A stretch of DNA of 64,000 nucleotides, from the sequence record PP534475.1; one strand, given 5' to 3'. A program made the position numbers and the translations under genes. How positions within the stretch are numbered: position 1 is the first letter of the stretch; the number at the start of each line of letters is the position of its first letter. The notes beneath the pieces are model-generated. The model was not told where the DNA came from and made no database searches. It was given only the letters and a program-made list of their open reading frames with translations. Source of the DNA: Escherichia phage YJin-2024a. Shown here piece by piece: positions 3,696 to 39,085 of the stretch.

Positions 3696-4112
3696 ATGAG
3701 TAAATATGGTTTTGTAAATAACGGACTTAATCAAAGTATGGGCTCCCAGCAGCCCGTTCCGGGTCTGGATAACCCCTACTTACAACAGTTGCAACAGCGT
3801 TTAGCAGAAGCGCAACAGATGCAGCAACAACTCCAGCAAAACCCTGGAAGTGTAAGTCCTATGCAAATGATGCAGCAAATGAGCGGGCAGTCGCAAATGC
3901 CTCAACAAATGCAGCAACAGATGCCGCAGCAGCAAGTTCAGCAACAAACCCAACAACCGCAGGTTTCTGCGGAGGGACAGGCAGTACTAGCCCTTTTCGA
4001 AGACTTCGCAAAGACAGAGGATGGGAAACAGCTTGTATCACTTATGGGTAAGTTTAATAGCTTCTGCCAAAGCCAAGTTGCAAAAGCTCAAAATGGTGGT
4101 AATAACTCCTAA
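3696..4112 (+). CDS. Gln-rich low-complexity protein
   Basis: 138 aa with PQQMQQQMPQQQVQQQTQQPQ tract; GGAGG RBS upstream. Confidence 0.55.
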   Translation: MSKYGFVNNGLNQSMGSQQPVPGLDNPYLQQLQQRLAEAQQMQQQLQQNPGSVSPMQMMQQMSGQSQMPQQMQQQMPQQQVQQQTQQPQVSAEGQAVLALFEDFAKTEDGKQLVSLMGKFNSFCQSQVAKAQNGGNNS

Positions 4113-4121
4113 GGAGAAATT

Positions 4122-4316
4122 ATGTGTTGCAGAAAATCTGTTTCGTGCTGCCCAATGCCTGTAGCACGTTGTTGCTCTCCAGCAATGTTTACGCAAATAC
4201 CGGCGTTCAATCCGTTTGCCTTTAAGCCTACTCTTATCCTGCCCCCTAGAGTAGATTTTCAGTCAAGATTGGCCTCCCGTATGGGTGGTTGCTGTACACC
4301 GAGAGTGTGGTTCTAA
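4122..4316 (+). CDS. small Cys-rich hypothetical protein
   Basis: 64 aa with several CC pairs; last ORF before the terminator; may not be coding. Confidence 0.3.
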   Translation: MCCRKSVSCCPMPVARCCSPAMFTQIPAFNPFAFKPTLILPPRVDFQSRLASRMGGCCTPRVWF

Positions 4317-4329
4317 ACCAAAAACAAAA

Positions 4330-4362
4330 GCCCCTGCCGAAAGGTAAGGGGCTTTTTCTTTT
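4330..4362 (+). terminator. intrinsic terminator
   Basis: GCCCCT...AGGGGC hairpin with inner GAAA loop followed by TTTTTCTTTT. Confidence 0.7.
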
Positions 4363-4365
4363 GCC

Positions 4366-4408
4366 TTAAATACAGAAAAGCCCTGCGCTCTCCAGGAAAC
4401 GCAGGGCT
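4366..4408 (-). terminator. intrinsic terminator for the convergent SPFH gene
   Basis: 8-bp GC-rich hairpin GCCCTGCG/CGCAGGGC followed on the minus strand by TTTTCTGTATTT. Confidence 0.65.
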
Positions 4409-4432
4409 TACTTCAGATGTTACATGCGGGTA

Positions 4433-5380
4433 TTATTTATTACGCATATCCATAATCATTTGGCCATCGTAACCAGTTCCCACTACTGTTTGCGGTACAC
4501 CACCTTGGTATTTCTGAGCACGAATCATTTCGACTTCCAGTTGTTTCCAACGAATCATCTCAGGAGTAATGGTACGTTGCAGTGCGGCGTTAGCTTCAGC
4601 TTCTTTCTTAGCTGCATACAGTTTAGCATCTGCATCACGTTCGTTAGCAATAGCTTGGTTATTACGAGCTTCGCGATCTGCTTCTGCTTGTTTAACCTTC
4701 TGCTGTGCTTCTTGTTCAACACGAGCCAACTCAGCTTTTGCAGCATTAACTTGCTCTTCACGAACTTTGGTATTCTGTACCTGTTCCATGATTACTGGAG
4801 GCAGAGTAATATCCTGAAGGAATACCTGCTTAACTGTGTAACCATATGGGCGTGCATACTCTTCAACTTCTTGTTGAATTGCAGTTTGCAATTGAGCCTG
4901 AATTTTAGCATCAAACAAATCTTGTGCTTTAGGTACAGACTTACCAAACTCACGAATAGTAGACAGTAATTTTTCAGTTACATACTTGTCTAGCGCCTGA
5001 TCCTGAGTACCTGCGTTAATGCGGTTAATCGGTGCCTTAGAACCATCAAACTGCAACATAACAGTCAGGTCAACAGTGGATTTAAACTTATCCTGACTAG
5101 GAACCTGAAGTTTATCTAATTTTAGAGCAATATCTTTAGTACTAAAAGTATCGAAAGAAGCAAAAGGATTTACAATATGAAAGCCGGGTAATACTGGGCT
5201 AGGGTCAACTTTACCCAGGAAAGTCTGGGTTTTAACAGTACCGTCTTGAACAACAGTATAGGAGTTAAGGGCCAGAACTAAACCTACCAAACCAACTGCA
5301 GCACCAATACCCCAACGTTTGATATTACGCATCAATTTTTGCTCATAAGTCAGTTCTTTAGTGTTTTTAGTAGCAAACAT
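4433..5380 (-). CDS. SPFH/band-7 (prohibitin/HflKC-like) membrane protein
   Basis: N-terminal TM helix, SPFH-like core, long Ala/Glu/Gln-rich coiled coil (AKAELARVEQEAQQKVKQAEADREARNNQ). Confidence 0.65.
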   Translation of the reverse strand: MFATKNTKELTYEQKLMRNIKRWGIGAAVGLVGLVLALNSYTVVQDGTVKTQTFLGKVDPSPVLPGFHIVNPFASFDTFSTKDIALKLDKLQVPSQDKFKSTVDLTVMLQFDGSKAPINRINAGTQDQALDKYVTEKLLSTIREFGKSVPKAQDLFDAKIQAQLQTAIQQEVEEYARPYGYTVKQVFLQDITLPPVIMEQVQNTKVREEQVNAAKAELARVEQEAQQKVKQAEADREARNNQAIANERDADAKLYAAKKEAEANAALQRTITPEMIRWKQLEVEMIRAQKYQGGVPQTVVGTGYDGQMIMDMRNK

Positions 5381-5414
5381 ATATTTCCTTTGTTTTAGTT
5401 ACAGTTAATAAAAT

Positions 5415-5489
5415 TGGCCGAGGTGACAGGATTCGAACCTGCATAAAGGAATTTAGAAGACTCCTGCCTCTCCCTTAGACTACACCCCG
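5415..5489 (-). tRNA. tRNA-Arg (anticodon TCT)
   Basis: Acceptor CGGGGTG/CACCTCG, D-arm GTCT-AAGGGAG-AGGC, anticodon stem GGAGT/ATTCC with loop CTTCTAA, T-arm GCAGG-TTCGAAT-CCTGT, CCA. Confidence 0.7.
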
Positions 5490-6286
5490 TTTAAGTATTT
5501 TTAAGAACTCTCGTAAAAACTCTTAAAAATACAGACGATACCGGGAGAGTCATAAGTCTCACTCATTAAGTATTTCAAGACAAAATACAGTAACGTCTAT
5601 TATTTTCCAGTTTAAGTCAGGGTGACTTAGTGGTTATGTCCTGCGGTATATTGAGGACTCGGTTAGGCTTGGGGTCATGACTTCCCACCTTTTGCTGCTA
5701 CTCAACAGGAGTTATCGCGAATTACCTGTGCTATTGTGCACCATTAGTGACATCTCTCATGTCAGCATTTCCCACTTTGTGGATAGCTTGAAAAACTACT
5801 CCGATATGGAGAAAGAACTTCACTATCCTAGAATACCTTCTAAAGTTCTTCTTTAGCCTGGACATAGTTAAATCGTAATAAAACTATTCAGCAGACTGGT
5901 TGGTTAGTCTGGAACCAACTACCGCGTGGTTTAGGCAGTGCGCAACTAACCTCGGAAGCTTTTACATTAAAAGCACCAGTTATCCAGTTCTTACCGACCG
6001 TAGGACTCGAACCTACATCTTCCACCAGTTACGGCTTGATAATACCAATTATACTAGGACGGCAGTGTTACTACATAAGTGATTTCCACACCCCACTATT
6101 TATAAATTAGAGAAGAGTTTAGGGGAGAGGTTTCAGACGCCTCATTTTACACGTTCTAGCCACTAACCGGGATTGCCGCCCCCTGTGTACTAGTTTTACA
6201 ACTAACCCACCGACTCTATTCAATGCGCTCCGGTTGGGATTCTGCACTCAGCGTAATCGGCTCGCTGTTCTCTAATTTATGAATAT

Positions 6287-6315
6287 ATTATACAGAATTT
6301 AAAGGCATTTAGCAA
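6287..6315 (-). promoter_or_regulatory. T5-type early promoter (TTGCTA-17-TATAAT) firing into the ORF-free region 5490-6280
   Basis: Minus-strand consensus hexamers with AT-rich upstream element; -35 lies 9 nt after the stop of the 6324-6767 gene. Confidence 0.6.
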
Positions 6316-6323
6316 ATAAATTT

Positions 6324-6767
6324 TTAATTAAATTCGCCAGCAATCTGAGCAGCAGTACCGCCATCATAACGCCCAGGAAATTCTTCCTTAATCGCTTTCA
6401 TCAGCATACCCTTTGTAATTCCAGGGTTTAGCTTAACTAATTCTGCAAAGTATTTACGAATCTCAGTATCAGATAACTGAGGAGGCAGATACTCCTGCAA
6501 CCACTTATTTAGAATGTATTCATACTGAGCGGACTGCAAGCTATAACTATCAAGATCTTGACCATGAAGTTTAGCTTTCATCTGGTTAATGCTTTTTAGT
6601 TGCGCTTTGAGATAAGACACAAATTGTTCAGAAGTGATGAAATCTTTATCAATACGCTGAAGATCCCCGATTATGGTCTGATAGCTTTTAGCGACTTCTT
6701 TATCAGAACCATTAAACTTAGAATCCTGCAAAGCTCTACGCAAAACATCTAAAATATTCTCTTCCAT
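6324..6767 (-). CDS. YqeY/GatB-C-terminal-domain-like protein
   Basis: C-terminal GMLMKAIKEEFPGRYDGGTAAQIAGEF resembles the GatB/YqeY motif. Confidence 0.5.
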   Translation of the reverse strand: MEENILDVLRRALQDSKFNGSDKEVAKSYQTIIGDLQRIDKDFITSEQFVSYLKAQLKSINQMKAKLHGQDLDSYSLQSAQYEYILNKWLQEYLPPQLSDTEIRKYFAELVKLNPGITKGMLMKAIKEEFPGRYDGGTAAQIAGEFN

Positions 6768-6937
6768 TATTTCATTCCTAACGCTTGGTTAAAAGATTGT
6801 TCTGTCATAACTGCTGAGACTTTGGCGAAATCAAACTTTTTAGGGTTTGTAGTGATTTCAGCAACGTTAGAAGTTTTAACAGTTTTCGTAGTACGAATAC
6901 CGCGAGTGTTAACACCAATAATTACAACTGATTTCAT
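6767..6937 (-). CDS. small hypothetical protein (56 aa)
   Basis: ORF below track threshold; stop overlaps next start (TAATG); promoter at 6969-6997 upstream. Confidence 0.35.
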   Translation of the reverse strand: MKSVVIIGVNTRGIRTTKTVKTSNVAEITTNPKKFDFAKVSAVMTEQSFNQALGMK

Positions 6938-6968
6938 ATTTCGCTTCCTCTCATTAATTTATGGAAGT

Positions 6969-6997
6969 ATTATACGGAAATTTAAATATTTAAGCAA
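6969..6997 (-). promoter_or_regulatory. T5-type early promoter TTGCTT-17-TATAAT
   Basis: Consensus hexamers on the minus strand with AT-rich upstream region. Confidence 0.6.
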
Positions 6998-7005
6998 GTA
7001 AATTT

Positions 7006-7473
7006 TTAAGTTTTAGTGACAACAGGTTTATAGAATGTATGTCCCTTAATCTTAGTTGTTTTCTTAAATTTCTTTGTCCAGTAAGGTTTATCTTTACCAC
7101 TATGGAAGTATAGTGCTCCATATGTAGGATCTTGTGGTAAATCAACGTAGTATATCACTCTAGCTAAATTCTTAGCGGTTTGCCAAGCCTCATCAGTTTT
7201 ATCAACTTTTGGTCTCTTAGATACCCAAGAGAACTGGTTAGACTGATATACTACTTTACAGTAGGAATCTGGGAATTTACCGGAGTTTACACGGTTTTTA
7301 GTAACATGTGCAATCGCCGTCATTCCCTTTATGCCCTCACCACGACTCTCGAAATAGATATTTTTAGCAATGCAATCTATTTCTTTTGCATCGTGCGATG
7401 CCTGACTACTAAAGCTGAAGGTAAGGGCAGCTACTAAAAGCAAAGCTGCCTTCATTCTTTTTACTCCTGCCAA
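7006..7473 (-). CDS. secreted SleB-family cell-wall hydrolase
   Basis: Signal peptide MKAALLLVAALTFSFSSQA; NIYFESRGEGIKGMTAIAHVTKNRV matches the SleB hydrolase motif. Confidence 0.6.
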   Translation of the reverse strand: MAGVKRMKAALLLVAALTFSFSSQASHDAKEIDCIAKNIYFESRGEGIKGMTAIAHVTKNRVNSGKFPDSYCKVVYQSNQFSWVSKRPKVDKTDEAWQTAKNLARVIYYVDLPQDPTYGALYFHSGKDKPYWTKKFKKTTKIKGHTFYKPVVTKT

Positions 7474-22748: not shown

Positions 22749-23556
22749 ATTAATTATTATTAGTGGTGCAGGTTTGAGTGTTGAAAGTGGTGTACGAGCT
22801 TTTCGTACTGATACTGCTAGTGGTAAAGCATTGTGGGATGATTATGATCTAGAAGAAGTATGTAATATTCATGCCTTTCGTGGTAATTTTTATCATAAAA
22901 CTCATATGTTTTACAACAAGCGTCGTGAAGAGCTAAAAACTGTTGAACCCAATCTTGCACATTTGCGTATTGGTGAATGGTATAAACAATATCCAGGTCA
23001 AATAGTAAACTTGACTACCAACGTTGATGACCTTATTGAGCGTGCTGGCGTTCCACATAGTGACATTCTGCACATTCACGGATATTTAAAAGAGGTTGTT
23101 GTAGCTGATAGCTACAATAGTAGCAATAAACGGATTATTGATGTAGGATACAATTCTATTGATCCAGATGATTATAAATGGGTTAAACCTAATGTAATCT
23201 TCTTTGGAGAGCATGCTCCTGCATATGCAGAAATGTACAATGTTTTTGATGGTATTACCAGTCAAGATATGATAGTTGTGGTTGGTTGTTCTAACCAAGT
23301 AATTAACTTCTACTGGGAATTATTTCCTGTTCTTAATTTGACTGCTGCGAAACTTATGGTTGTTAACTACTATGATAGTGCCCTAGCGGCGGAACCGGAC
23401 TATCAAGGTATGACTCGTAGTGAGATGTACCAGCTGGAAGAACGCGGTGTCCCTTACTGGAGTAAAGGTGCGGTAGATGCTTTCAGTGATCCTGATTTTA
23501 TTGCTCGTGTGGAAGCTCATTTAGAGGGTAGACCTTATGTGTCAGGAAATAAGTAA
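22741..23556 (+). CDS. Sir2 (sirtuin-fold) protein lacking the zinc-ribbon module
   Basis: SGAGLSVESGVRAFR, TTNVDDLIERAG, HIHGY, NVIFFGE, VVVGCS match sirtuin Rossmann-fold motifs; no CxxC pairs. Confidence 0.65.
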   Translation: MRRLIIISGAGLSVESGVRAFRTDTASGKALWDDYDLEEVCNIHAFRGNFYHKTHMFYNKRREELKTVEPNLAHLRIGEWYKQYPGQIVNLTTNVDDLIERAGVPHSDILHIHGYLKEVVVADSYNSSNKRIIDVGYNSIDPDDYKWVKPNVIFFGEHAPAYAEMYNVFDGITSQDMIVVVGCSNQVINFYWELFPVLNLTAAKLMVVNYYDSALAAEPDYQGMTRSEMYQLEERGVPYWSKGAVDAFSDPDFIARVEAHLEGRPYVSGNK

Positions 23557-24049
23557 TACTCCAATTATTTTTCTGGACATTGATGGGGTGCTCAATTCGA
23601 GCATCTCCCACCATCATGCACCTGATGATGAAAAGATTTTCTTTGGGAGTGACTGGGTTTTCAAACCGCTTCTCAAGGCTTTTCAAGATTTTATTCGTCC
23701 TTCCTCGATAATGATTGTTGGGGTATCCTCATGGTTCTCTGTCAGGAATGAGATGGAGAACGTTCAGATTATGACCGGATTAGGTCTTATCGATCGTTTT
23801 CTTGGTACAACGGATTTTACTGGTGGTGGATTATCTAGGGGTAATTCTGTTCTTCGCTTCGTTGAAAAGCATAAGCTCAAACATTGGTGTGTGCTGGATG
23901 ATGCCGGTGCTATGATGTATCAGTATCCAACGGTTATAGTCAATGGTAGGACTGGGATAAATCTTCAAGATTTAAAAGCTGTTAGCTATATGCTAGAATT
24001 TAGCCCAGATCTTGAAATGTGTAAATCCTTGCAACAATTTAAGGTGTAA
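23537..24049 (+). CDS. HAD-superfamily phosphatase
   Basis: Motif I FLDIDGVL and motif IV VLDDAG; overlaps the Sir2-like gene by 20 nt. Confidence 0.55.
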   Translation: MCQEISNTPIIFLDIDGVLNSSISHHHAPDDEKIFFGSDWVFKPLLKAFQDFIRPSSIMIVGVSSWFSVRNEMENVQIMTGLGLIDRFLGTTDFTGGGLSRGNSVLRFVEKHKLKHWCVLDDAGAMMYQYPTVIVNGRTGINLQDLKAVSYMLEFSPDLEMCKSLQQFKV

Positions 24050-24879: not shown

Positions 24880-24973
24880 TGATTTTTATTAGCTGAACTC
24901 TGATTACCGAGTCATTTTGGCTCGGATTATTACATAATCTTTCCAGTTAATTGACAGTATGAATAAATTGTCA

Positions 24974-25002
24974 TTGACAAATTGGATGGATTATGTAATA
25001 AT
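24974..25002 (+). promoter_or_regulatory. promoter TTGACA-17-AATAAT with TG extension
   Basis: Two TTGACA hexamers (24951, 24974) upstream of the HNH gene. Confidence 0.45.
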
Positions 25003-25021
25003 ATATGTATTGGAGGTAAAG

Positions 25022-25474
25022 ATGTCGCTCACACAACAAGAACTTTTAGATAATTTCCGATATGAAGATGGAAAATTATTTAGAACTACAGGAAGAAATG
25101 CAGGCAAGGAATGTTGTGTTTCAACGGGAAATGGTTATTACCGTATTTCTCTAGGGAGTAGAACTATGCTCCGACACAGAGCTATCTTCTTAATGCATCA
25201 TGGATACTTACCTGATTTGGTAGATCATGAGAACACTATAAAAGGTGATGATCGTATTGAAAATCTTAGGGAGCAGACAGTATCTGGTAATCTAAGAAAT
25301 ATCAAATATAAGAAAGGAATGCATGTTTACCCTTCTGGTAGTAAGAACTGGCAAGTAGTATTTACTATTAACCGTAAACGGATAGTTAAAGGAACATATG
25401 ACAACTATGAGGTTGCATGTTCTATGGCCAAGATGTTTAGAGGCCAATTATATGGTAGGGAATCAATCCAGTAA
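25022..25474 (+). CDS. HNH homing endonuclease
   Basis: HRAIFLMHHGYLPDLVDHENTIKGDDRIENLR is an HNH motif; start moved to MSLTQQ (RBS GGAGG). Confidence 0.6.
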   Translation: MSLTQQELLDNFRYEDGKLFRTTGRNAGKECCVSTGNGYYRISLGSRTMLRHRAIFLMHHGYLPDLVDHENTIKGDDRIENLREQTVSGNLRNIKYKKGMHVYPSGSKNWQVVFTINRKRIVKGTYDNYEVACSMAKMFRGQLYGRESIQ

Positions 25475-25482
25475 AATTTCAT

Positions 25483-25512
25483 TTGCAAGGGAGTATTATT
25501 TTATAGTATAAT
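25483..25512 (+). promoter_or_regulatory. T5-type early promoter TTGCAA-18-TATAAT
   Basis: Followed by CATAAATGAGAGAC leader; transcribes the ORF-poor region 25520-26000. Confidence 0.55.
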
Positions 25513-26009
25513 ATTCCCATAAATGAGAGACATTAGTAAAAATTGATTTTGCTAATTTTTCTTGTTTACAATCCGCGATACGGAACAGTTAGGCTGCCCC
25601 ATTAAGGGTTGTTTTAACTGTTACGTGTTGGTTTTTAAACAAATAGTTAATAGAATACTTAGCGATCTGCGTCCCGTAGGAACCCTGGTAAGGCCTCGAA
25701 GCAACCTAGATAGAGGTGGTTGTGAAGTGAGACGGGAGGAGTGAAAAACTCCGAGACGTGATTCTGTAAGTTATATTGCATCTAGTATGAGCTAGTATAT
25801 GAAGCATTAGGTGAGCAAATCTGGCTTAGCGGCCATCCTCAAGGATTTGTGCGGTATAGCAAAGCAGCAGCGCAGCGTGAAAGTGGAAGTTGCCACCCCA
25901 CTTCAGTATTTGCAATTAATTTGTTGAGAAATTGACAGTAACAGTTGTTCTATTCTCTCTGAATAGTCCTAAAGAAAACTTATTTCATTTCCAACACAGG
26001 AGTATTGTT

Positions 26010-28799
26010 GTGTTCTCAATCCTACAAGGTCATGCAGGATTTCATCGCGATTTAGCCACAGGCAATTGGCGAGAAGTTAAAGCAGAAGACTATCTTTTTG
26101 CTAAAAGATTTTCCTCAAAGCATCCTGAAGGTAAACCAGCTTCAATGCCCTTCAAGTTTGATGTAATTGATGAAGTTGATCCTCAAACCCTAGTAGAAAT
26201 GCTTCCTCTTATGAGACGTTTAACGTCTGACCCTCATATCGTTGCGGTACGAGGTCGATGTCTTGCACCTAAAAATAATGTGCGGCGTAAGAAGGGCAAC
26301 TTTAATGTATCTAACCCAAGTCATATAATTGCAATGGACGTGGATGGTATTGTAGATACAGGTGGTTGCAACAAGTTTGATCTTGTTGGCATGGCTCGAC
26401 ATATTATTAGAATGTTAAATAGTATTAGTGAGGATATGTTTCCTCTTGATGCAGGGTTTATCGCTCATGCATCGTCTTCGGCTGGGCTAAAACCAGGTAT
26501 CCGAATGCACTTAATACTAGAATCTAATGTTAAAGTAACTCAGGGTCAAATCAAATTCTTATTTACATCTATCAACGAAAGTAGTAGACAAAAGTATGGC
26601 TTTGATATTGCCGACTTAGCTTATTACTCTTCCGTACAGCTCCATTATTTTGCAGATCCGTTATTTACCGATGGTATAGTAGATCCGTTTAAAGCGGAGG
26701 GTGCTTCACGTCTGGTATTTGTTAAGGGTTCTAAAGTAAATTTACCTAATAATCTGGTTGACTATGAAACAACTAGAGGTGAGTTTAAGGAGGAGTTTTA
26801 CTCTTTACTCGACCAAATTAAAGGTAAAAAAGCTGCCTCCGATAAAGTAGAGGAAACTATCAGCGAACTAGAAGAAGCTGAGGATGGGGTGTATCTACGT
26901 ATTATCCCTAAACTCTATCATAGAGCTTTGGAGGATGGTGTTGATTTTGCATGGCTAGAAAAAGAAATTCGTCCAGCCTTATCAGAATATATTGCAACTA
27001 AAGATAATAGTCGTAATATTCAAGATTACTTTAATAATGGTCGTAAACAGGCTCTGAAAGCATTTGTTAATAATTCTAAACGTGATATACCCGATGTTTT
27101 AAAAGGTATTCCACTTAAAAAGCTAGAAACTAATTCTCTAGAAACTGATAACTTCTTGAAATTAAATACTGTACCACCAGAAGGTTATATGACTTTTGTA
27201 AAAGCAAGTCTAGGTACAGGTAAAACTACAGCGGTTGTGCGTTGGTTAGATTCAGGGGTTATTAAAGGTAATTTCTTAGCAATTACCAATACTCGAGCAC
27301 TGGTATCTTCAAATGCTAAGAAATTTAGTGCAGGACAATATGATAAGTCTGTAGATATGCTTAATTTTAAGCGTGGCGCTATTGACCGTATGTCCACAAC
27401 TATTCACTCTTTGCATAAGTTCAAGAGTTTTATTGGTCAAATCGATGCAATCTTTATCGATGAATGTGATGCTGTAATGAATGACCTATTATTCGCCCCT
27501 GTTGTTAAACAACGTCGTGAATGTATTCAGGTTCTTCGGGATATTCTTGCAACTGCAAAAATCATTATATTATCTGATGGGGATATTAGTGCAGAAACAA
27601 TTGAAGCATATGGTTCTTTGATTGAGTTTGATAAACCGGTTGCATTTTATAATCATCACCGTAAAATGCTATCAAAAGCTCATGCTTATGAGTTCCCTGA
27701 TGAATCCAGTATTTGGGTTGCACTTCAGACTTCTCTAGAAATGGGTGAGAAATCTATCCTAGTATCTGACTGTGGGCCGGATGAACTGAATGAGAAGGGT
27801 ATGGCACTGCGTCGTAATACGGGTGCGTTAGTTAAGGAAATCCACTCAAACTCCACATCTGATGTGGATATTAGACGTATTCTGGATTACACAACTAATG
27901 AGCTAATTGATCAACAAATTGATTGCTTATTATGTAGTCCATCCGTAACGAGTGGTGTTGACTTCAACTATTTTGATAACGTATTCGTTATTACTAGAAC
28001 CAGCAACCAAGCGCCAAACATGCGTTTCCAAGCAATCAGGCGCGACCGTGGCGCTCAGAACATTTATTATTTTATTGATAAATCTACGAGTGGATTCTCC
28101 GCAGGTTCTGAACAATATAACATTGATGAAGGTTGGCTGGAGTTAGCACAGCAACTATACGCACGTCGCAGGGAACTGGAGTCTAGGAATTATACTAGTA
28201 CTTTACGTTATTACTTGCTTGATCAGGGTGCAACTATTGATATTTTCAGTGAAAGCTGGGGAACTATCGAAGGTGCTGGGAAGGAATATACGGAAGAGCG
28301 AATCAAAGCCATTTTGCATTCAACTCCTGATTATTGTGCTCCACGCCATGCAGATGCGTATGAAGCTAAACTACTTCTTGTTCGTTATTATCATCTTGAG
28401 TCTATTAAAGATGTAACAGTTGAGCATGTTGAACAATATATCAAGGATAAACCGAATGATAGAGCTGCATTCTTCCATAAGATGCACGAGATGTTCTGGG
28501 AAGATATTAAGAAGTGCTCAAATGTCACTATCAAACCATTCATAGAAGCTCTGAAAGGCAAGAAGAAAGATTTCTTCCTTAAAACAGGTCAGAGTGCTAA
28601 CCCAAAATATGCCAGAATGTATCTTGGTATGATGGGTATTGGCAAGGATATGAACACGGAGAATATTGTAGACTGGTACAGAACTTATTGTAAAATCGAG
28701 TGTATGCCAATCCCATATAAGTTTATGACTGATGAGGAGAAACATATGCATGATGAAGCAATGGCAGAGCTAGGTGCTAGAAATGACAGTGAAGAATAA
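26010..28799 (+). CDS. primase-polymerase-like N-terminal domain fused to P-loop helicase (origin-binding-protein-like)
   Basis: N-terminal IIAMDVDG (hhDhD-like); Walker A SLGTGKTT, Walker B IFIDECD; probable GTG start at 26010 with AGGAG RBS 7 nt upstream (track ORF begins at TTG 25932). Confidence 0.55.
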   Translation: MFSILQGHAGFHRDLATGNWREVKAEDYLFAKRFSSKHPEGKPASMPFKFDVIDEVDPQTLVEMLPLMRRLTSDPHIVAVRGRCLAPKNNVRRKKGNFNVSNPSHIIAMDVDGIVDTGGCNKFDLVGMARHIIRMLNSISEDMFPLDAGFIAHASSSAGLKPGIRMHLILESNVKVTQGQIKFLFTSINESSRQKYGFDIADLAYYSSVQLHYFADPLFTDGIVDPFKAEGASRLVFVKGSKVNLPNNLVDYETTRGEFKEEFYSLLDQIKGKKAASDKVEETISELEEAEDGVYLRIIPKLYHRALEDGVDFAWLEKEIRPALSEYIATKDNSRNIQDYFNNGRKQALKAFVNNSKRDIPDVLKGIPLKKLETNSLETDNFLKLNTVPPEGYMTFVKASLGTGKTTAVVRWLDSGVIKGNFLAITNTRALVSSNAKKFSAGQYDKSVDMLNFKRGAIDRMSTTIHSLHKFKSFIGQIDAIFIDECDAVMNDLLFAPVVKQRRECIQVLRDILATAKIIILSDGDISAETIEAYGSLIEFDKPVAFYNHHRKMLSKAHAYEFPDESSIWVALQTSLEMGEKSILVSDCGPDELNEKGMALRRNTGALVKEIHSNSTSDVDIRRILDYTTNELIDQQIDCLLCSPSVTSGVDFNYFDNVFVITRTSNQAPNMRFQAIRRDRGAQNIYYFIDKSTSGFSAGSEQYNIDEGWLELAQQLYARRRELESRNYTSTLRYYLLDQGATIDIFSESWGTIEGAGKEYTEERIKAILHSTPDYCAPRHADAYEAKLLLVRYYHLESIKDVTVEHVEQYIKDKPNDRAAFFHKMHEMFWEDIKKCSNVTIKPFIEALKGKKKDFFLKTGQSANPKYARMYLGMMGIGKDMNTENIVDWYRTYCKIECMPIPYKFMTDEEKHMHDEAMAELGARNDSEE

Positions 28800-31308: not shown

Positions 31309-32280
31309 ATGACTAATGTAAAAGAATTTATTAAACGCTGTCAAGAAGCATATTATCAAGGCATGTCTTTAATCTCTGATGAGGAATATGATCGTCTTAT
31401 TAAAAGATTCCCACTAGAGGAAGAGATCGGGCCTAAGGGCGATATTCCACATCTATATCGTATGTATTCTTTACAGAAAGTTTATTATAATCGTGGAGAT
31501 AAGCCCCCATTTAACCCATTAGGTCAGGTAGAAACTGATAAGTTAGATGGTTGTGCGATTTCTCTGTTATATATTAATGGCGAATTTGTTCAAGCACTAA
31601 CTCGTGGTAATGGCATTCTAGGGAATGATGTCACAAGCAACGTAAGACTGCTGAACATCCCTAAAAAGATTTCCCAAAAAGTACCTACTCAAATCACTGG
31701 TGAAGTTCTAATTACAAAAGAAGTAGAAAATAAACGTAACTTTGCCTCTGGTGCTATTAACCTCAAAGATAGTGATGATTTCGTACAACGTATCGGAGAA
31801 GGTGGTTTAATCTTCGTCGCATATGGTATCCAGTGTTCTGCTGAATCTGTAGGTATTACAGAAACGTATTTAAAAGATATGCTTTGGCTAGAGAATGAGA
31901 ACTTCTTAACAGTTGTTAATGTGCGTTCCTTCTTTAAATGGATTCCGACGGATGGTAAAGTTGTTCGTATTAATGACAACAACAAATTCTTCCGAGAAGG
32001 CTGGACTAATAAATTCCCTCGTGGAGCATTCGCTATTAAAGAGGATGAAGAAGGCGAGATTACAACTCTTACTAAAGTTGAATGGCAGGTAGGGGCTTCT
32101 GGTAAAGTAACTCCAGTTGGTTATTTTGAACCGGTAATTATTGATGATGCTACAATTGTTAAAGCGACTCTTAATAACGTTGATTATATTAACTCTCTTG
32201 ATCTAGAGATCGGTTGCCAGATTCGAGTGATTCGTGCTGGTGGTGTAATCCCGTGCATAGTAGAGCGAGTATACGATTAA
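31309..32280 (+). CDS. NAD-dependent DNA ligase, N-terminal adenylation/OB part
   Basis: KxDG active-site motif ETDKLDGCAI; ends where the LigA zinc-finger region would start. Confidence 0.75.
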   Translation: MTNVKEFIKRCQEAYYQGMSLISDEEYDRLIKRFPLEEEIGPKGDIPHLYRMYSLQKVYYNRGDKPPFNPLGQVETDKLDGCAISLLYINGEFVQALTRGNGILGNDVTSNVRLLNIPKKISQKVPTQITGEVLITKEVENKRNFASGAINLKDSDDFVQRIGEGGLIFVAYGIQCSAESVGITETYLKDMLWLENENFLTVVNVRSFFKWIPTDGKVVRINDNNKFFREGWTNKFPRGAFAIKEDEEGEITTLTKVEWQVGASGKVTPVGYFEPVIIDDATIVKATLNNVDYINSLDLEIGCQIRVIRAGGVIPCIVERVYD

Positions 32281-32452: not shown

Positions 32453-32482
32453 ATTTATATAAATTGATAAGGAAGAAATTTG

Positions 32483-33253
32483 ATGAAAATCGAAATTCCA
32501 ACACAATGTCCCTCTTGTGGTTCTAAGCTAGATCTTGTCAACGGACAATTATTCTGTCGGAATAAGTCCAACTGTCCAGCGCAATCAAGTAAGTTAATTG
32601 AGAACTTCTGTACAAAAATGAAGTTAAAGGGCTTTGGCCCAAAAACTATTGAGAAGCTGGAGCTGACGAAGATTTCAGAACTATTTTACCTAACCGAAGA
32701 AGATTTGGTTAGAGCCGTGGGTAGCAAGGTTGCCGCTAAGTTAATTAGCGAATTAAATACTAAAGTTCGCGGAGACATTGACTTTGGTTCAGTTCTCGGT
32801 TCTTTAGGAATCCCTCTAATTGGAGAGGTTGCAGCAAAGAAATTATCCCAAAATTGCACTAGCTTCCACGATGTGAAGGCTGACGGCAAGGCTGGAGAAA
32901 ATTATAAAGCCTGGCTAAATTCCCCACAAGGCAAGGATGTTATCGAACTGCCGTGGAAATTCTCAACTGGTGCTAAAGCTAAAACTGTCGTTACAGATGA
33001 ATTAGTTGCCCAGTCAAACGGAATCGCGGTATGTATTACCGGATCTTTGCAAGATTTTGCAAATAGAACGGATGCAACAAACTATTTAGAAAGTCTAGGG
33101 TATACGGTTAAGAAATCCGTTACTAAAGACGTCAAATACCTAATCTGTGAGGATGAATCAAAACGTTCTTCCTCATCTTATAAGAAAGCCGAAACGAATG
33201 GGATAGAAATCCTGTCGATTAAAGAACTATTGGAGAAAAATAATAATGTCTAA
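32483..33253 (+). CDS. NAD-dependent DNA ligase, C-terminal Zn-finger/HhH/BRCT part
   Basis: CPSCGSKLDLVNGQLFCRNKSNCPAQ is the LigA zinc-finger; start taken at ATG 32483. Confidence 0.75.
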   Translation: MKIEIPTQCPSCGSKLDLVNGQLFCRNKSNCPAQSSKLIENFCTKMKLKGFGPKTIEKLELTKISELFYLTEEDLVRAVGSKVAAKLISELNTKVRGDIDFGSVLGSLGIPLIGEVAAKKLSQNCTSFHDVKADGKAGENYKAWLNSPQGKDVIELPWKFSTGAKAKTVVTDELVAQSNGIAVCITGSLQDFANRTDATNYLESLGYTVKKSVTKDVKYLICEDESKRSSSSYKKAETNGIEILSIKELLEKNNNV

Positions 33254-34030: not shown

Positions 34031-34065
34031 AAGGGGAGGGGGCTATGCTCCTTCCCCTTTTTGCA
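34031..34065 (+). terminator. intrinsic terminator
   Basis: AAGGGGAGGGG...CTCCTTCCCCTT hairpin followed by TTTTGCATTT. Confidence 0.7.
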
Positions 34066-34095
34066 TTTAGAAGGCACGAAAGCGTGCAAAGGAGA

Positions 34096-35568
34096 ATGAC
34101 CTTGTTTAACGTGCAAGCTGTAGTGTTGAAGATGCTTCTAGCTTCTGAACAGAAGCAAATAGCATTGGAAACATTCTCAAAACTGCATAAAGATCATTTT
34201 AATGACGCTTTCTCCTCAATTTACCAAGCCGTCCAGAATTATTATAAAAAATATAACACAATGCCGTCCATTGACGCACTTATGCTTGAAGCTAATAGGA
34301 ACGCCCGCCTTTCTCAAGCTCTAGTCGTCTTAGCTAACACTCAAATTCCAGAAGTGAGCATGGAACAGGCACTTGAAGTCCTAGAAGCCGAATATACACA
34401 GGATTTATTCCTGAAACTTCTAGAAACAGACGTGCTTCAAGATTTAACAATGCTGGATCAGGGAGAAATTCTCAACCGAGTTGCCTCCCTTCACTTAAAA
34501 TTAGAAGAGAAAGTAACGAATACTGGAAAAGTATTCAACGCAGATAACATGCGTATTTTCCAGAGAGAAGAAGATACCAAACTGAACTTAATCGCTCTTG
34601 GTATTTGTAATGAGTTCGACGCTCAAATTGGTTTAGCTCGCACAGAAACGTTACTGCTTGGTGGTTGGCGTGGTACTGGTAAATCCATTATCTGTTCAAA
34701 CATACAGGTTCAGCAATATTTGAATGGAGATATTGCTCCATACTTCTCAATTGAGATGAAAGAACATGAAGTATTTAGACGTAATCTAGCCATGTTAGCA
34801 GGTGTATCAGCACTAGCAATGCGTAATAATACTCTAGAAGGTGCAGCTCTGTTGAGATTAGCCAGAACTAGAGCTAGAATGTTTAATGGTGGTGAAGAGC
34901 TTTTCGATAGCTTTGTTAAACAGTACACAATGGCTAAGATGAGTGATTTCTACGATATGGAGAGTAAGCTAATAGAAGGGTATGAGCTACATACTCCTAT
35001 GATTATTGTTTATGACCCTGAGCTGTCTATTACAACAGTTGACGTAGAACTAAATAAATTAGTTGCTAGATATGGTGATAAAGTTACAGTAGCTTTACTG
35101 GACTATATTAACCAAACCCGACTTCCAGACTCTAAAACCATTGATATGTATGACTGGAAAGAACAGATGGTTGTTAGCTCGTCTTTCAAATCTATCTGCC
35201 AGAAACATAACGTGGCTGGTGTAGCTCCTTACCAGATAGATCAAGATGGTAGAACACGTATGTCAAAGGGGATTCTTGATTCCGCTGACATGGCTGCTAA
35301 TCTTAATGCTGCAAAAGCTGATAATGGTCAAGGTGCTATTATGTTTGACTTCGTTAAGACTCGTTCTTCTGATAGCGTGAAGTTTATGCCTAAAATGAAC
35401 TGGGAAACTCTGCGAATGGATAACACTACCAACCTAGCAATGGAAGATATATCTCAAATGGAAGCTGAGTTCGTTATCCCTATTGAGAAGGATAAGCCGG
35501 CTCAACCTAAACGTGCTAAGAAAGACAAAGCTGAAAATTCAACAGGTGAACAGGCCAGCGATATATGA
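34096..35568 (+). CDS. RecA-fold replicative helicase (DnaB-like)
   Basis: Walker A GGWRGTGKS, Walker B VALLDY; start moved to MTLFNV (RBS AAGGAG) because the track start lies inside the terminator. Confidence 0.65.
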   Translation: MTLFNVQAVVLKMLLASEQKQIALETFSKLHKDHFNDAFSSIYQAVQNYYKKYNTMPSIDALMLEANRNARLSQALVVLANTQIPEVSMEQALEVLEAEYTQDLFLKLLETDVLQDLTMLDQGEILNRVASLHLKLEEKVTNTGKVFNADNMRIFQREEDTKLNLIALGICNEFDAQIGLARTETLLLGGWRGTGKSIICSNIQVQQYLNGDIAPYFSIEMKEHEVFRRNLAMLAGVSALAMRNNTLEGAALLRLARTRARMFNGGEELFDSFVKQYTMAKMSDFYDMESKLIEGYELHTPMIIVYDPELSITTVDVELNKLVARYGDKVTVALLDYINQTRLPDSKTIDMYDWKEQMVVSSSFKSICQKHNVAGVAPYQIDQDGRTRMSKGILDSADMAANLNAAKADNGQGAIMFDFVKTRSSDSVKFMPKMNWETLRMDNTTNLAMEDISQMEAEFVIPIEKDKPAQPKRAKKDKAENSTGEQASDI

Positions 35569-36455
35569 GTAGAATAACAGAACTACTTGATCTGAAAGGC
35601 ATTGAATATAAAGACACAGGTGGGGACATCCTCATCTGTTGTCTCAATCCAGATCATGACGATAAACACCCAAGTTTGCGTATTGATCCTGAAACAGGTA
35701 TTATGCACTGCTTGAGTTGTGGCTTCGGTAAAGGTATACCGAGCATTTACCATTATTTTAATGAGACTCAGTACCGACAGTCCCCAAGACTATCGCAGGT
35801 ACGTAAAAAGATTTCAGAGATTAGGAATGGATCTACGAATCTTGCAATTCCTGAATCTGCTTACCTTTTCGAAGGTGATTTCCGAGGTATAAGTTCTAAG
35901 ACCTTGAAGAAATATTTTGCTTTCCAACACCAAGCAGATTGGGAAGGCAGAATTGTATTCCCAATCACAGATGCTGTTGGACGCAATATCCTATTTTTGG
36001 GTCGTTCTATAAACAGTTCTGCCCCTCCTAAATACTTAGTAAAACCAAAACAAGTTTCACCACCGATTTTTCCTGTACGATATAATACTCCAGTTCTTAT
36101 TCTAGTTGAAGGTATCTTTGATATGCTGAACCTAGAGGATAATGGTATAGACTATGCTTCTTGCTGCTTTGGTACACATCAGTTCACTTCAGATAACATT
36201 GCAGATAAGTTCAGTCCTTATATTATTGCTGGTGTAAAAGTTGTTGTTATCTTACTAGATAATGATGCTTCTGGTAATAAAGCTGCACAAGCATTGGCTA
36301 AGCTAATTCGTACAAAAACGCGTTTAATACCTGTAGTTGCTAACTTTCTCCTGCCTGAAGGCAAAGATCCAGGTGATTTAAACAAAGATGAAATTGATAT
36401 GTTAGCAAAACGTATTGAAATTTTAATTGCTGAATCGCTTAAAGATTTGGTATAA
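35565..36455 (+). CDS. DnaG-type DNA primase
   Basis: CHC2 zinc finger CCLNPDHDDKHPSLRIDPETGIMHCLSCG plus Toprim segment VLILVEG...LLDNDASG. Confidence 0.8.
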   Translation: MSRITELLDLKGIEYKDTGGDILICCLNPDHDDKHPSLRIDPETGIMHCLSCGFGKGIPSIYHYFNETQYRQSPRLSQVRKKISEIRNGSTNLAIPESAYLFEGDFRGISSKTLKKYFAFQHQADWEGRIVFPITDAVGRNILFLGRSINSSAPPKYLVKPKQVSPPIFPVRYNTPVLILVEGIFDMLNLEDNGIDYASCCFGTHQFTSDNIADKFSPYIIAGVKVVVILLDNDASGNKAAQALAKLIRTKTRLIPVVANFLLPEGKDPGDLNKDEIDMLAKRIEILIAESLKDLV

Positions 36456-36517: not shown

Positions 36518-39085
36518 TTGAAAATCGCAGTAGTTGATAAAGCTCTAAATAACACTCGTTACGATAAACATTTCCAGCTATACGGCGAGGAAGTTGATGT
36601 ATTCCATATGTGTAACGAGAAGTTATCTGGTCGTTTGCTTAAAAAGCACATTACTATTGGAACACCAGAAAACCCATTTGATCCGAATGATTACGATTTT
36701 GTTATACTAGTAGGTGCTGAACCTTTTCTGTATTTCGCAGGTAAGAAAGGCATTGGTGACTATACTGGTAAACGTGTAGAGTATAATGGATATGCTAACT
36801 GGATTGCGAGTATTAGCCCAGCCCAGTTACACTTTAAGCCTGAAATGAAACCAGTTTTCGATGCAACAGTAGAGAATATCCACGATATTATCAATGGTCG
36901 TGAGAAGATTGCAAAAGCTGGTGATTACCGTCCCATTACTGACCCTGACGAGGCGGAAGAATATATCAAGATGGTGTATAATATGGTTATCGGACCTGTC
37001 GCATTCGACTCCGAAACCTCAGCACTATACTGTCGAGATGGTTATCTGCTTGGTGTTTCTATATCTCACCAAGAATATCAGGGTGTATATATCGATTCTG
37101 ATTGTCTCACAGAGGTTGCGGTATATTATCTCCAGAAAATTCTAGATAGTGAAAACCACACTATTGTTTTTCACAACTTGAAGTTTGATATGCACTTTTA
37201 TAAGTACCATCTGGGACTTACTTTTGATAAAGCACATAAAGAACGCAGGCTCCATGATACAATGTTGCAGCATTATGTTCTAGATGAGCGTCGTGGTACT
37301 CATGGCTTGAAATCTCTAGCAATGAAGTATACCGATATGGGTGACTATGACTTTGAACTAGATAAGTTCAAGGAGGATTACTGCAAAGCATATAAAATCA
37401 AGAAAGAAGATTTCACATATGATTTAATTCCGTTTGATATTATGTGGCCTTACGCTGCAAAAGATACCGATGCCACTATACGTTTGCACAACTTCTTCTT
37501 ACCAAAAATTGAGAAGAATGAAAAACTTTGCAGTCTGTATTATGATGTTCTAATGCCTGGTTGTGTATTTCTCCAGCGTGTTGAGGATCGTGGTGTACCA
37601 ATTTCTATTGATCGCTTGAAAGAAGCTCAGTATCAGTTAACTCATAATCTGAATAAAGCCCGTGAGAAGCTGTATACTTATCCAGAAGTCGTTCAGCTAG
37701 AGAAAGATCAGAACGAAGCGTTTAACCCAAACTCTGTTAAACAACTCCGTGTTCTTCTGTTTGATTATGTTGGCTTAACTCCAACAGGTAAATTGACGGA
37801 TACTGGAGCAGACTCTACAGATGCAGAAGCTCTGAACGAATTGTCTACGCAGCATCCAATTGCTAAGACCCTACTAGAGATTCGTAAGCTGACCAAGCTG
37901 ATCTCTACTTACGTTGAGAAGATTCTTCTAAGCATTGATGCTGATGGTTGCATTCGTACTGGCTTCCATGAGCATATGACTACTTCTGGTCGCCTGAGTT
38001 CTTCTGGTAAACTGAACCTGCAGCAGCTACCTCGTGATGAATCTATTATCAAGGGTTGTGTAGTAGCTCCTCCAGGGTATCGTGTAATCGCATGGGACTT
38101 AACAACTGCGGAAGTTTATTATGCTGCTGTTCTATCTGGTGATAGAAATATGCAACAAGTATTTATCAACATGAGAAATGAACCAGATAAATACCCTGAC
38201 TTCCACTCTAACATCGCACACATGGTATTTAAGCTCCAATGCGAACCTCGTGATGTTAAAAAGTTATTCCCAGCCCTGCGTCAAGCAGCTAAAGCAATCA
38301 CCTTTGGTATTTTGTATGGTTCTGGCCCGGCTAAAGTAGCTCATTCTGTTAATGAGGCTCTTTTGGAACAAGCTGCTAAGACAGGCGAACCGTTTGTAGA
38401 GTGTACTGTTGCAGATGCTAAAGAGTACATTGAAACTTACTTCGGTCAGTTCCCACAGCTTAAGCGTTGGATTGATAAGTGCCACGACCAGATCAAGAAC
38501 CATGGGTTTATCTATAGTCACTTTGGTCGTAAACGTCGTCTGCATAATATCCACTCCGAAGACCGTGGTGTTCAGGGTGAAGAAATTCGTTCTGGATTTA
38601 ACGCAATCATTCAGTCTGCTTCTTCTGATAGTCTCCTTTTAGGGGCTGTAGACGCAGATAATGAGATCATTTCTCTTGGCCTAGAACAAGAGATGAAGAT
38701 TGTTATGCTGGTTCACGACTCCGTGGTTGCTATTGTTCGTGAGGATTTGATCGACCAGTACAATGAAATCCTGATTCGTAATATCCAGAAAGACCGTGGT
38801 ATCAGTATTCCTGGCTGTCCGATTGGTATTGATTCAGATTCTGAAGCTGGAGGTTCTCGTGACTATTCTTGTGGTAAGATGAAGAAACAGCACCCATCAA
38901 TCGCTTGTATTGATGATGATGAATATACTCGTTATGTCAAGGGTGTATTACTTGACGCAGAGTTCGAGTATAAGAAACTAGCTGCAATGGATAAAGAGCA
39001 TCCAGATCATAGCAAATACAAGGATGATAAGTTTATTGCTATATGTAAAGATTTGGATAACGTGAGAAGGATTCTCGGTGCTTGA
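36518..39085 (+). CDS. family A DNA polymerase with 3'-5' exonuclease domain
   Basis: Exo motif FDSETSALY; polymerase motifs KAITFGILYGSG and LVHDS; TTG start with AAGAGGAG RBS; 855 aa. Confidence 0.9.
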   Translation: MKIAVVDKALNNTRYDKHFQLYGEEVDVFHMCNEKLSGRLLKKHITIGTPENPFDPNDYDFVILVGAEPFLYFAGKKGIGDYTGKRVEYNGYANWIASISPAQLHFKPEMKPVFDATVENIHDIINGREKIAKAGDYRPITDPDEAEEYIKMVYNMVIGPVAFDSETSALYCRDGYLLGVSISHQEYQGVYIDSDCLTEVAVYYLQKILDSENHTIVFHNLKFDMHFYKYHLGLTFDKAHKERRLHDTMLQHYVLDERRGTHGLKSLAMKYTDMGDYDFELDKFKEDYCKAYKIKKEDFTYDLIPFDIMWPYAAKDTDATIRLHNFFLPKIEKNEKLCSLYYDVLMPGCVFLQRVEDRGVPISIDRLKEAQYQLTHNLNKAREKLYTYPEVVQLEKDQNEAFNPNSVKQLRVLLFDYVGLTPTGKLTDTGADSTDAEALNELSTQHPIAKTLLEIRKLTKLISTYVEKILLSIDADGCIRTGFHEHMTTSGRLSSSGKLNLQQLPRDESIIKGCVVAPPGYRVIAWDLTTAEVYYAAVLSGDRNMQQVFINMRNEPDKYPDFHSNIAHMVFKLQCEPRDVKKLFPALRQAAKAITFGILYGSGPAKVAHSVNEALLEQAAKTGEPFVECTVADAKEYIETYFGQFPQLKRWIDKCHDQIKNHGFIYSHFGRKRRLHNIHSEDRGVQGEEIRSGFNAIIQSASSDSLLLGAVDADNEIISLGLEQEMKIVMLVHDSVVAIVREDLIDQYNEILIRNIQKDRGISIPGCPIGIDSDSEAGGSRDYSCGKMKKQHPSIACIDDDEYTRYVKGVLLDAEFEYKKLAAMDKEHPDHSKYKDDKFIAICKDLDNVRRILGA

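Follow-up and report, generated by a model that had tools for sequence, protein, structure and literature searches.

The closest described relative of the protein considered here is D2 of phage T5. Purified T5 D2 is an ATP-dependent, bipolar helicase of superfamily 2 (SF2), active in both the 3'-5' and the 5'-3' direction in vitro, and a K405E substitution abolishes both activities (PMC3632103). The protein was likened to UL9 of herpes simplex virus (HSV) and to the RepA proteins of N15-like phages, and a role in initiation was suggested (PMC3632103; Wong, Sayers & Sanders 2013). In the published scheme the helicase occupies residues 389-690, a helix-turn-helix (HTH) is predicted at residues 308-329 along with two coiled coils, and residues 1-269 are left blank (PMC3632103). 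T5 is a classic model phage; work on D2 has dealt with it solely as an unusual, "bipolar" helicase. Here we describe the D2 gene in a 64,000-nucleotide (nt) stretch of DNA from Escherichia phage YJin-2024a (sequence record PP534475.1), which we call the window, and report that the blank N-terminal third of its product adopts an archaeo-eukaryotic primase (AEP) fold in a confident structural model.

Several replication proteins resemble D2 in part. HSV UL9 is a replication initiator helicase whose SF2 helicase domain 1 matches D2. The match covers only ~150 residues, however, and UL9 is without a primase domain, because herpesviruses encode their AEP primase, UL52, separately. N15 RepA has been described as a primase-helicase-DNA-binding initiator (PMC9170930), and CyRepA as a Toprim-related DUF3854 domain joined to DEXDc (PMC10079941). 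N15 RepA and CyRepA1/2 belong to the same helicase clade as D2, carry a primase-type domain at the N-terminus, and initiate replication of their own replicons; their N-terminal module is of Toprim type (Toprim_3 or DUF3854), whereas that of D2 is AEP-like. An AEP domain in N15 RepA (1324 amino acids, aa) was considered and rejected: Pfam instead gives a weak match to Toprim_3, alongside Herpes_ori_bp. The N15 replicon is not known to have a DnaB/DnaG set of its own.

A different likeness is to the AEP primase-helicase fusions (pRN1 ORF904, NrS-1 polymerase, S-2L PrimPol, poxvirus D5/E5, and C962R of African swine fever virus, ASFV). These proteins share with D2 an N-terminal AEP, a helical domain and an NTPase/helicase, and it is their AEPs that match the D2 N-terminal domain best in structure. 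In contrast to D2, their helicases belong to superfamily 3 (SF3; D5/VirE-type) and their AEPs are recognized by Pfam; the helicase of D2 is SF2, and its AEP-like domain escapes both Pfam and NCBIfam. The architecture that we propose for D2 is shared by all3500-like AEPs fused to a remote UL9-like SF2 helicase, which have already been described bioinformatically (Kazlauskas et al. 2018, PMC5862659). That paper and the supplements examined do not mention T5 or its relatives, and our literature search found no report that assigns a primase or AEP domain to T5 D2. The D2 gene, AEP primase-helicase fusions, and fusions of AEPs to UL9-like SF2 helicases are already known. What appears to be new, relative to the literature searched, is the model-based assignment of the unassigned third of T5 D2 to an AEP-fold domain with intact catalytic motifs.

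The window is T5-like phage DNA (Demerecviridae, Tequintavirus), and the D2 region shares 98% DNA identity with Salmonella phage SaI_NFG_5581, as it does with hundreds of further T5-like phages. The D2 gene (26010..28799, + strand) encodes 929 aa, in which an AEP-like domain, a helical linker, an SF2 helicase and a C-terminal domain follow one another. Its product is the ortholog of T5 D2 (AAU05245), 93% identical over 926 aa, with equal length, the same start and gene neighborhood, and the same Walker A lysine, K405; the difference is that the AEP-fold assignment made here for the N-terminus is absent from PMC3632103. Because of this identity to an assayed protein, helicase activity can be transferred to the D2 of the window with confidence. 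The profile phrog_3712 ("replication origin binding") covers the protein end to end (profile positions 1-927 of 927). The original prediction, made by a model that saw only the letters and their open reading frames (ORFs), had placed the gene at 25932-28799. Its end stands but its start does not: 25932 is the first TTG following a stop, the mechanical start of the longest ORF, which would give 955 aa, whereas the true start is a GTG at 26010, 7 nt after AGGAG, as also annotated in SaI_NFG_5581 and T5. Active T5 D2 was expressed from the equivalent GTG, with a primer encoding M-V-F-S-I-L-Q-G (PMC3632103). The prediction had also stated that related phages label such a gene as an origin-binding protein, and "replication origin binding protein" is indeed the usual label in their annotations; some GenBank records label the gene "DNA primase", "putative DNA primase" or "DNA primase C" in T5-like phages. 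The gene is present in roughly 900 phage genomes of the phage collection.

The N-terminal domain of D2

Structure prediction from a single sequence gave an unusable model for residues 1-390 (predicted local distance difference test, pLDDT, 34.7). A model of residues 20-268 (26067..26813, + strand) built from an alignment of 38 family sequences was confident, with pLDDT 94.1 and a predicted template modeling score (pTM) of 0.89; no templates were used, and the alignment held no recognized AEP. The nine best fold matches of this model were all AEPs, and the top of the list was free of HAD and Rossmann-like structures; eukaryotic and archaeal PriS, CAPP, ASFV PrimPol and RepB' came lower in the same list. 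A Foldseek search of the PDB returned the same AEP families with weak E-values (0.01-0.5), and a search of predicted viral structures returned phage proteins labeled primase, PriCT-2, VirE or NrS-1-like helicase (E-values of 1e-6 to 1e-3). Fold scores for the domain are modest. The confident model shows the D2 N-terminus adopting an AEP fold, which agrees with the AEP domain suggested there by the original prediction.

The conserved positions of the domain fall on this model in a recognizable order (all motifs are on the + strand; model numbering is protein numbering minus 19). Motif I, IIAMDVDG (residues 106-113; 26325..26348), had been singled out in the original prediction as an AEP-type motif. 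Both of its aspartates, D110 and D112, are invariant in the 38 family sequences and in a second alignment of 30 full-length D2 orthologs with identity down to 22%, and the motif lies on strand E85-95 of the model. The motif II region, SSSAGLKPGIRMHLIL (26472..26519), holds S155 and H167, both invariant among the orthologs, with H167 on strand E145-157. A helix follows each of these two strands, and the third aspartate, D202, lies just past the second helix, in the motif III region FDIADLAYY (26601..26627), which is followed by a conserved VQxHY; D202 is invariant in both alignments. Downstream, ASRLVFV (26703..26723) joins a nearly invariant arginine, R234, to hydrophobic residues, and is a candidate motif IV by its pattern. 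Variation of motif II is documented for several AEP families, and a motif IV farther downstream, an Arg followed by a hydrophobic residue, has been described (PMC5862659, Kazlauskas et al. 2018); R234-L235 fits this motif IV. The order of motifs and strands in the model agrees with that of motifs I, II and III in AEP catalytic modules. In the family alignment the pattern reads hhhhDhD, SSSAGxKPGxRxH-hhhh, hDxALYxxVQxHY and DPF....R-h, in that order.

Comparison of the aligned sequences showed that the predicted AEP catalytic residues of D2 are under strict constraint. D110, D112, S155, H167 and D202 are invariant across the 30 orthologs exactly as the Walker residues of the helicase are. In the Vibrio phage orthologs, the helicase core retains 51-58% identity and the AEP-like domain only 28-33%, though its motif residues are invariant. 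The sole sequence-level link from this domain to primases is phrog_16950 ("DNA primase"), which matches 21 of the 38 family members.

A HMMER/phmmer scan of 1.84 billion representative proteins returned 81 relatives of the N-terminal domain. Some 35 of them, 900-1050 aa long, are D2-like proteins, and the others (E-values of 1e-8 to 1e-3) share residues ~28-260 only. In the distant relatives, the common domain lies N-terminal to PriCT_2 and to VapE, DUF5906 or D5-type SF3 helicase domains. This layout (N-terminal domain, PriCT_2, SF3 helicase) is the classic AEP primase-helicase layout of mobile elements.

Some distant relatives are labeled "hypothetical protein", and the names of the clusters to which distant relatives belong were uninformative. 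They include one at 3887-7432 of locus L013 (Roseomonas mucosa plasmid NZ_CP025065), one at 5864-7132 of locus L012, and further proteins on small plasmids. Among them, one protein of 1181 aa, without a Pfam match, lies beside the gene for a terminase small subunit on a plasmid-like record of 24 kb, and the contig of another carries a ParA-ParB fusion, an integrase and a transposase. Such "hypothetical" relatives are likely to be unrecognized replication proteins of mobile elements. If the front third of D2 is a working primase, a divergent AEP family now filed as "hypothetical protein" on plasmids and integrative elements would join the catalogue of replication enzymes.

Helicase core, linker and C-terminal region

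Family, profile and structure-chain matches place an SF2 helicase core of the UL9 / N15 RepA / CyRepA type at residues ~391-710 (27180..28139, + strand). The Walker motifs that had been predicted to follow the N-terminal region are present as Walker A, GTGKTT (residues 402-407; 27213..27230, + strand), whose K405 is the residue mutated in the K405E control of T5 D2, and Walker B, FIDECD (residues 482-487; 27453..27470, + strand). Helicase motif VI, the arginine finger region, reads QAIRRDRG (28029..28052, + strand; residues 668-682 in T5 D2), and R672, Q674, R678 and R680 are invariant. All three motifs are invariant among the 30 orthologs.

Each external match to the helicase is partial. Pfam Herpes_ori_bp (PF02399) matched D2 with an E-value of 3.6e-7 and 29.1 bits against a gathering cut-off of 20, over profile positions 51-197 of 820 only. 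NCBIfam CyRepA1 (NF042913) matched with an E-value of 5.7e-35 and 121 bits, below the equivalog cut-off of 200; the match is confined to the helicase part (positions 3-317 of 595), and no N-terminal DUF3854, a feature of that family, was detected in D2. A profile of the 30 orthologs matched UL9 structure chains (PDB 9hgj and 9hgi) at an E-value of 3.4e-8, over UL9 residues ~80-238, and residues 528-843 of N15 RepA matched the D2 helicase pairwise (E-value of 6e-5). We could detect no UL9-type C-terminal origin-binding domain in D2, and residues 711-929 gave no UL9 match. Since the UL9 match excludes the UL9 origin-binding domain, "origin binding protein" is a transferred name.

Between the AEP-like domain and the helicase lies an alpha-helical linker (residues 269-390; 26814..27179, + strand), in which an HTH (residues 308-329) and a coiled coil are predicted for T5 D2, and whose helices appear in a low-confidence single-sequence model. 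Among the 30 orthologs, R358 is invariant and A306 and Y340 are nearly so. From its position, the linker is a candidate helix-bundle accessory domain. For PriCT, residues 256-392 gave no Pfam match across the 30 orthologs, and hhalign against the regions that follow the AEP domain in relatives gave a probability of 2%. The sole external matches to the linker were weak ones, from the ortholog profile at residues 276-348 (26835-27053) to several GapR/UPF0335 DNA-binding chains (E-values of 0.03-0.27), in a zone that overlaps the HTH predicted for T5 D2. We judged a GapR/UPF0335 relation to be probably noise from helical composition and did not retain it.

The C-terminal domain (residues 711-929; 28140..28799, + strand) is of unassigned fold, and gave no match in Pfam, NCBIfam or PDB sequences. 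R720, E724, G740 and G876 are conserved among the orthologs, and the domain is a candidate DNA-recognition module.

A putative second primase and the alternatives

D2 lies within the T5 early replication cluster, which comprises nucleotide-metabolism genes, D2, a split NAD-dependent ligase, a DnaB-like helicase, a DnaG-type primase and a polymerase. The gene order around D2 is identical in T5 and SaI_NFG_5581. The separate DnaG-type primase and helicase that the original prediction had reported are real, and together span 34045-36455. The DnaB-like replicative helicase, a separate fork helicase, is encoded at 34045-35568 (+ strand; DnaB_C, E-value of 7.9e-9) and bears the same annotation in relatives and in T5. 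The DnaG-type primase, at 35565-36455 (+ strand), combines a CHC2 zinc ribbon with DNAG_N and Toprim; its gene overlaps that of the helicase by ATGA. A family A polymerase of 855 aa is encoded at 36518-39085. In the phage collection, the D2 N-terminal domain and the DnaG-type primase have matching counts by genus: 357/357 in Vibrio, 129/129 in Escherichia, 269/270 in Salmonella, 81/82 in Klebsiella, 10/10 in Proteus and 7/7 in Aeromonas phages. This agreement suggests a long-standing division of labor, not redundancy.

We consider it fairly likely that D2 is a modular replication initiator, built from an AEP fold whose predicted metal and nucleotide ligands (DxD, His, Asp and a downstream Arg) are intact, a helical domain, an SF2 helicase and a C-terminal domain. 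T5-like phages would then probably carry a second, initiator-type primase beside the bacterial-type one. In the mechanism that we propose, D2 would recognize and open phage DNA at the start of replication by means of its ATP-driven helicase (the helicase activity being that of T5 D2), and the AEP domain would lay the first primer or primers on the exposed strand. The T5 family A polymerase would take over the primers made by D2, after which the DnaB-like helicase and the DnaG-type primase would run the fork and prime Okazaki fragments. The initiator assignment is supported by the matching genus counts and, by analogy, by the relatives of the helicase module: every characterized one initiates replication of its replicon and carries a module of primase type at the corresponding N-terminal place. 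In N15 RepA and CyRepA this module is of Toprim type, and D2 thus seems to follow their design with an AEP exchanged for it. A working primase in the front third would make D2 the obvious candidate for the T5 initiator, would explain its resemblance to UL9 and N15 RepA, and would correct the transferred "origin binding protein" label in roughly 900 phage genomes.

A bolder form of this proposal is one that we put forward tentatively, as a possibility short of even chances. In it, the D2 family would be an undescribed, catalytically active AEP family, missed by Pfam, NCBIfam and PDB-sequence profiles and welded to a UL9-type SF2 helicase in the Demerecviridae, and T5 would be a two-primase phage in which replication is fired by the AEP-helicase, perhaps from DNA primers, while DnaG/DnaB only services the fork. 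If this is true, a bacterial virus would unite in one polypeptide the logic that herpesviruses divide between UL9 and UL52.

Several observations weigh against an AEP initiator. Pfam and NCBIfam gave no match to the D2 N-terminal domain, and the N-terminus, alone or as the profile of the 38-sequence family, matched no PDB chain sequence. The profile-profile comparison that the original prediction had called for, with AEP/PrimPol families, was run against one shallow family and gave no signal: when the D2 family profile was compared by hhalign with S-2L PrimPol, a solved AEP that is among the fold matches, probabilities were below 1% for its AEP domain and for a 4-sequence alignment. Motif II has a conserved arginine, and not a small residue, two positions before H167, and neither a PriCT nor a zinc-finger accessory domain was detected in D2. 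The four residues are placed in an AEP-like active site by strand position and motif order in the model only, and primase or polymerase activity of D2 is a prediction from sequence and model. Finally, T5 is without a defined replication origin, and sequence-specific DNA binding by D2 is putative.

These points leave room for other readings of the domain, which differ in how much of the AEP assignment they keep. The main alternative to origin firing is that D2 is an active AEP primase-polymerase serving repriming or recombination-dependent restart: it would reprime or extend at stalled forks, nicks and recombination intermediates in the manner of PrimPol, and a bipolar helicase would give it access to either strand. 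We regard this as unlikely, though the most plausible of the competing readings. It is less probable still that the fold is AEP-derived but non-enzymatic, retained as a DNA-binding or origin-recognition module like the RRM-like origin-binding domains of Rep and E1, because the active-site residues are invariant: four of them are kept down to 22% identity, and they are also kept in relatives on mobile genetic elements with different helicases. Neither a HUH nor a catalytic Tyr pattern, moreover, is present in the N-terminal domain.

The DxDG motif might also be coincidental or belong to another family, such as the HAD phosphatases, in which case the N-terminus would not be related to primases at all. 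The pattern hhhDhDG is also motif I of HAD proteins and occurs in one encoded in the same window, and no Pfam AEP model matches the D2 N-terminus. Among ~22,000 residues of long window ORFs, hhhDhD occurs at four places, one of which, at 23564, is the HAD phosphatase motif IIFLDIDGV; the short motif alone is therefore not diagnostic. The fold and its context speak otherwise, however. The top fold matches contain no HAD or Rossmann-like structure and the best nine are AEPs. The order DxD...H...D...R is likewise consistent with an AEP, as are the placement on strands and the relatives' PriCT-2/SF3 helicase layout. We rejected the HAD-phosphatase reading on fold, and consider a chance or unrelated motif very improbable.

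The D2 leader and neighboring genes

A gene-free stretch of ~500 nt (25483-26009) lies upstream of D2. It begins with a conserved promoter-like site, TTGCAA-18-TATAAT (25483-25512, + strand), and holds a structured leader of ~490 nt, whose RNA folds better than 100 of 100 shuffles (z = -3.2). One conserved block, GATACGGAACAGTTAGGCTGCCCCAT (25577-25602), is unique in the window and forms a hairpin with a few compensatory changes; a second conserved block, GGCTTAGCGGC, is also found in the leader. The corresponding gap measures 590-1590 nt in every Demerecviridae locus compared. The leader gave no Rfam match, and could be a structured leader, a noncoding RNA or an origin-proximal transcript.

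Two side observations concern other genes nearby. The NAD-dependent DNA ligase is encoded in two ORFs, at 31309-32280 and 32480-33253 (+ strand), ~200 nt apart; T5 is arranged likewise, as ligA and ligB with promoters between them. The 170-aa protein encoded at 23537-24049 (+ strand) gave a match (E-value of 2.8e-20) to HAD_SAK_2, the HAD domain found in RNA repair proteins of the "Swiss Army Knife" type, and the Sir2 deacetylase label on its SaI_NFG_5581 counterpart is probably a mis-annotation.

Directly upstream of D2, a 171-aa ORF (24959-25474, + strand) encodes an HNH_3 endonuclease domain (E-value of 1.5e-10). SaI_NFG_5581 has only small ORFs at this position, and in T5 one HNH gene directly follows D2 and a second separates dnaB from the primase gene. 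These differences in position suggest that mobile homing endonucleases shuffle around the replication genes.

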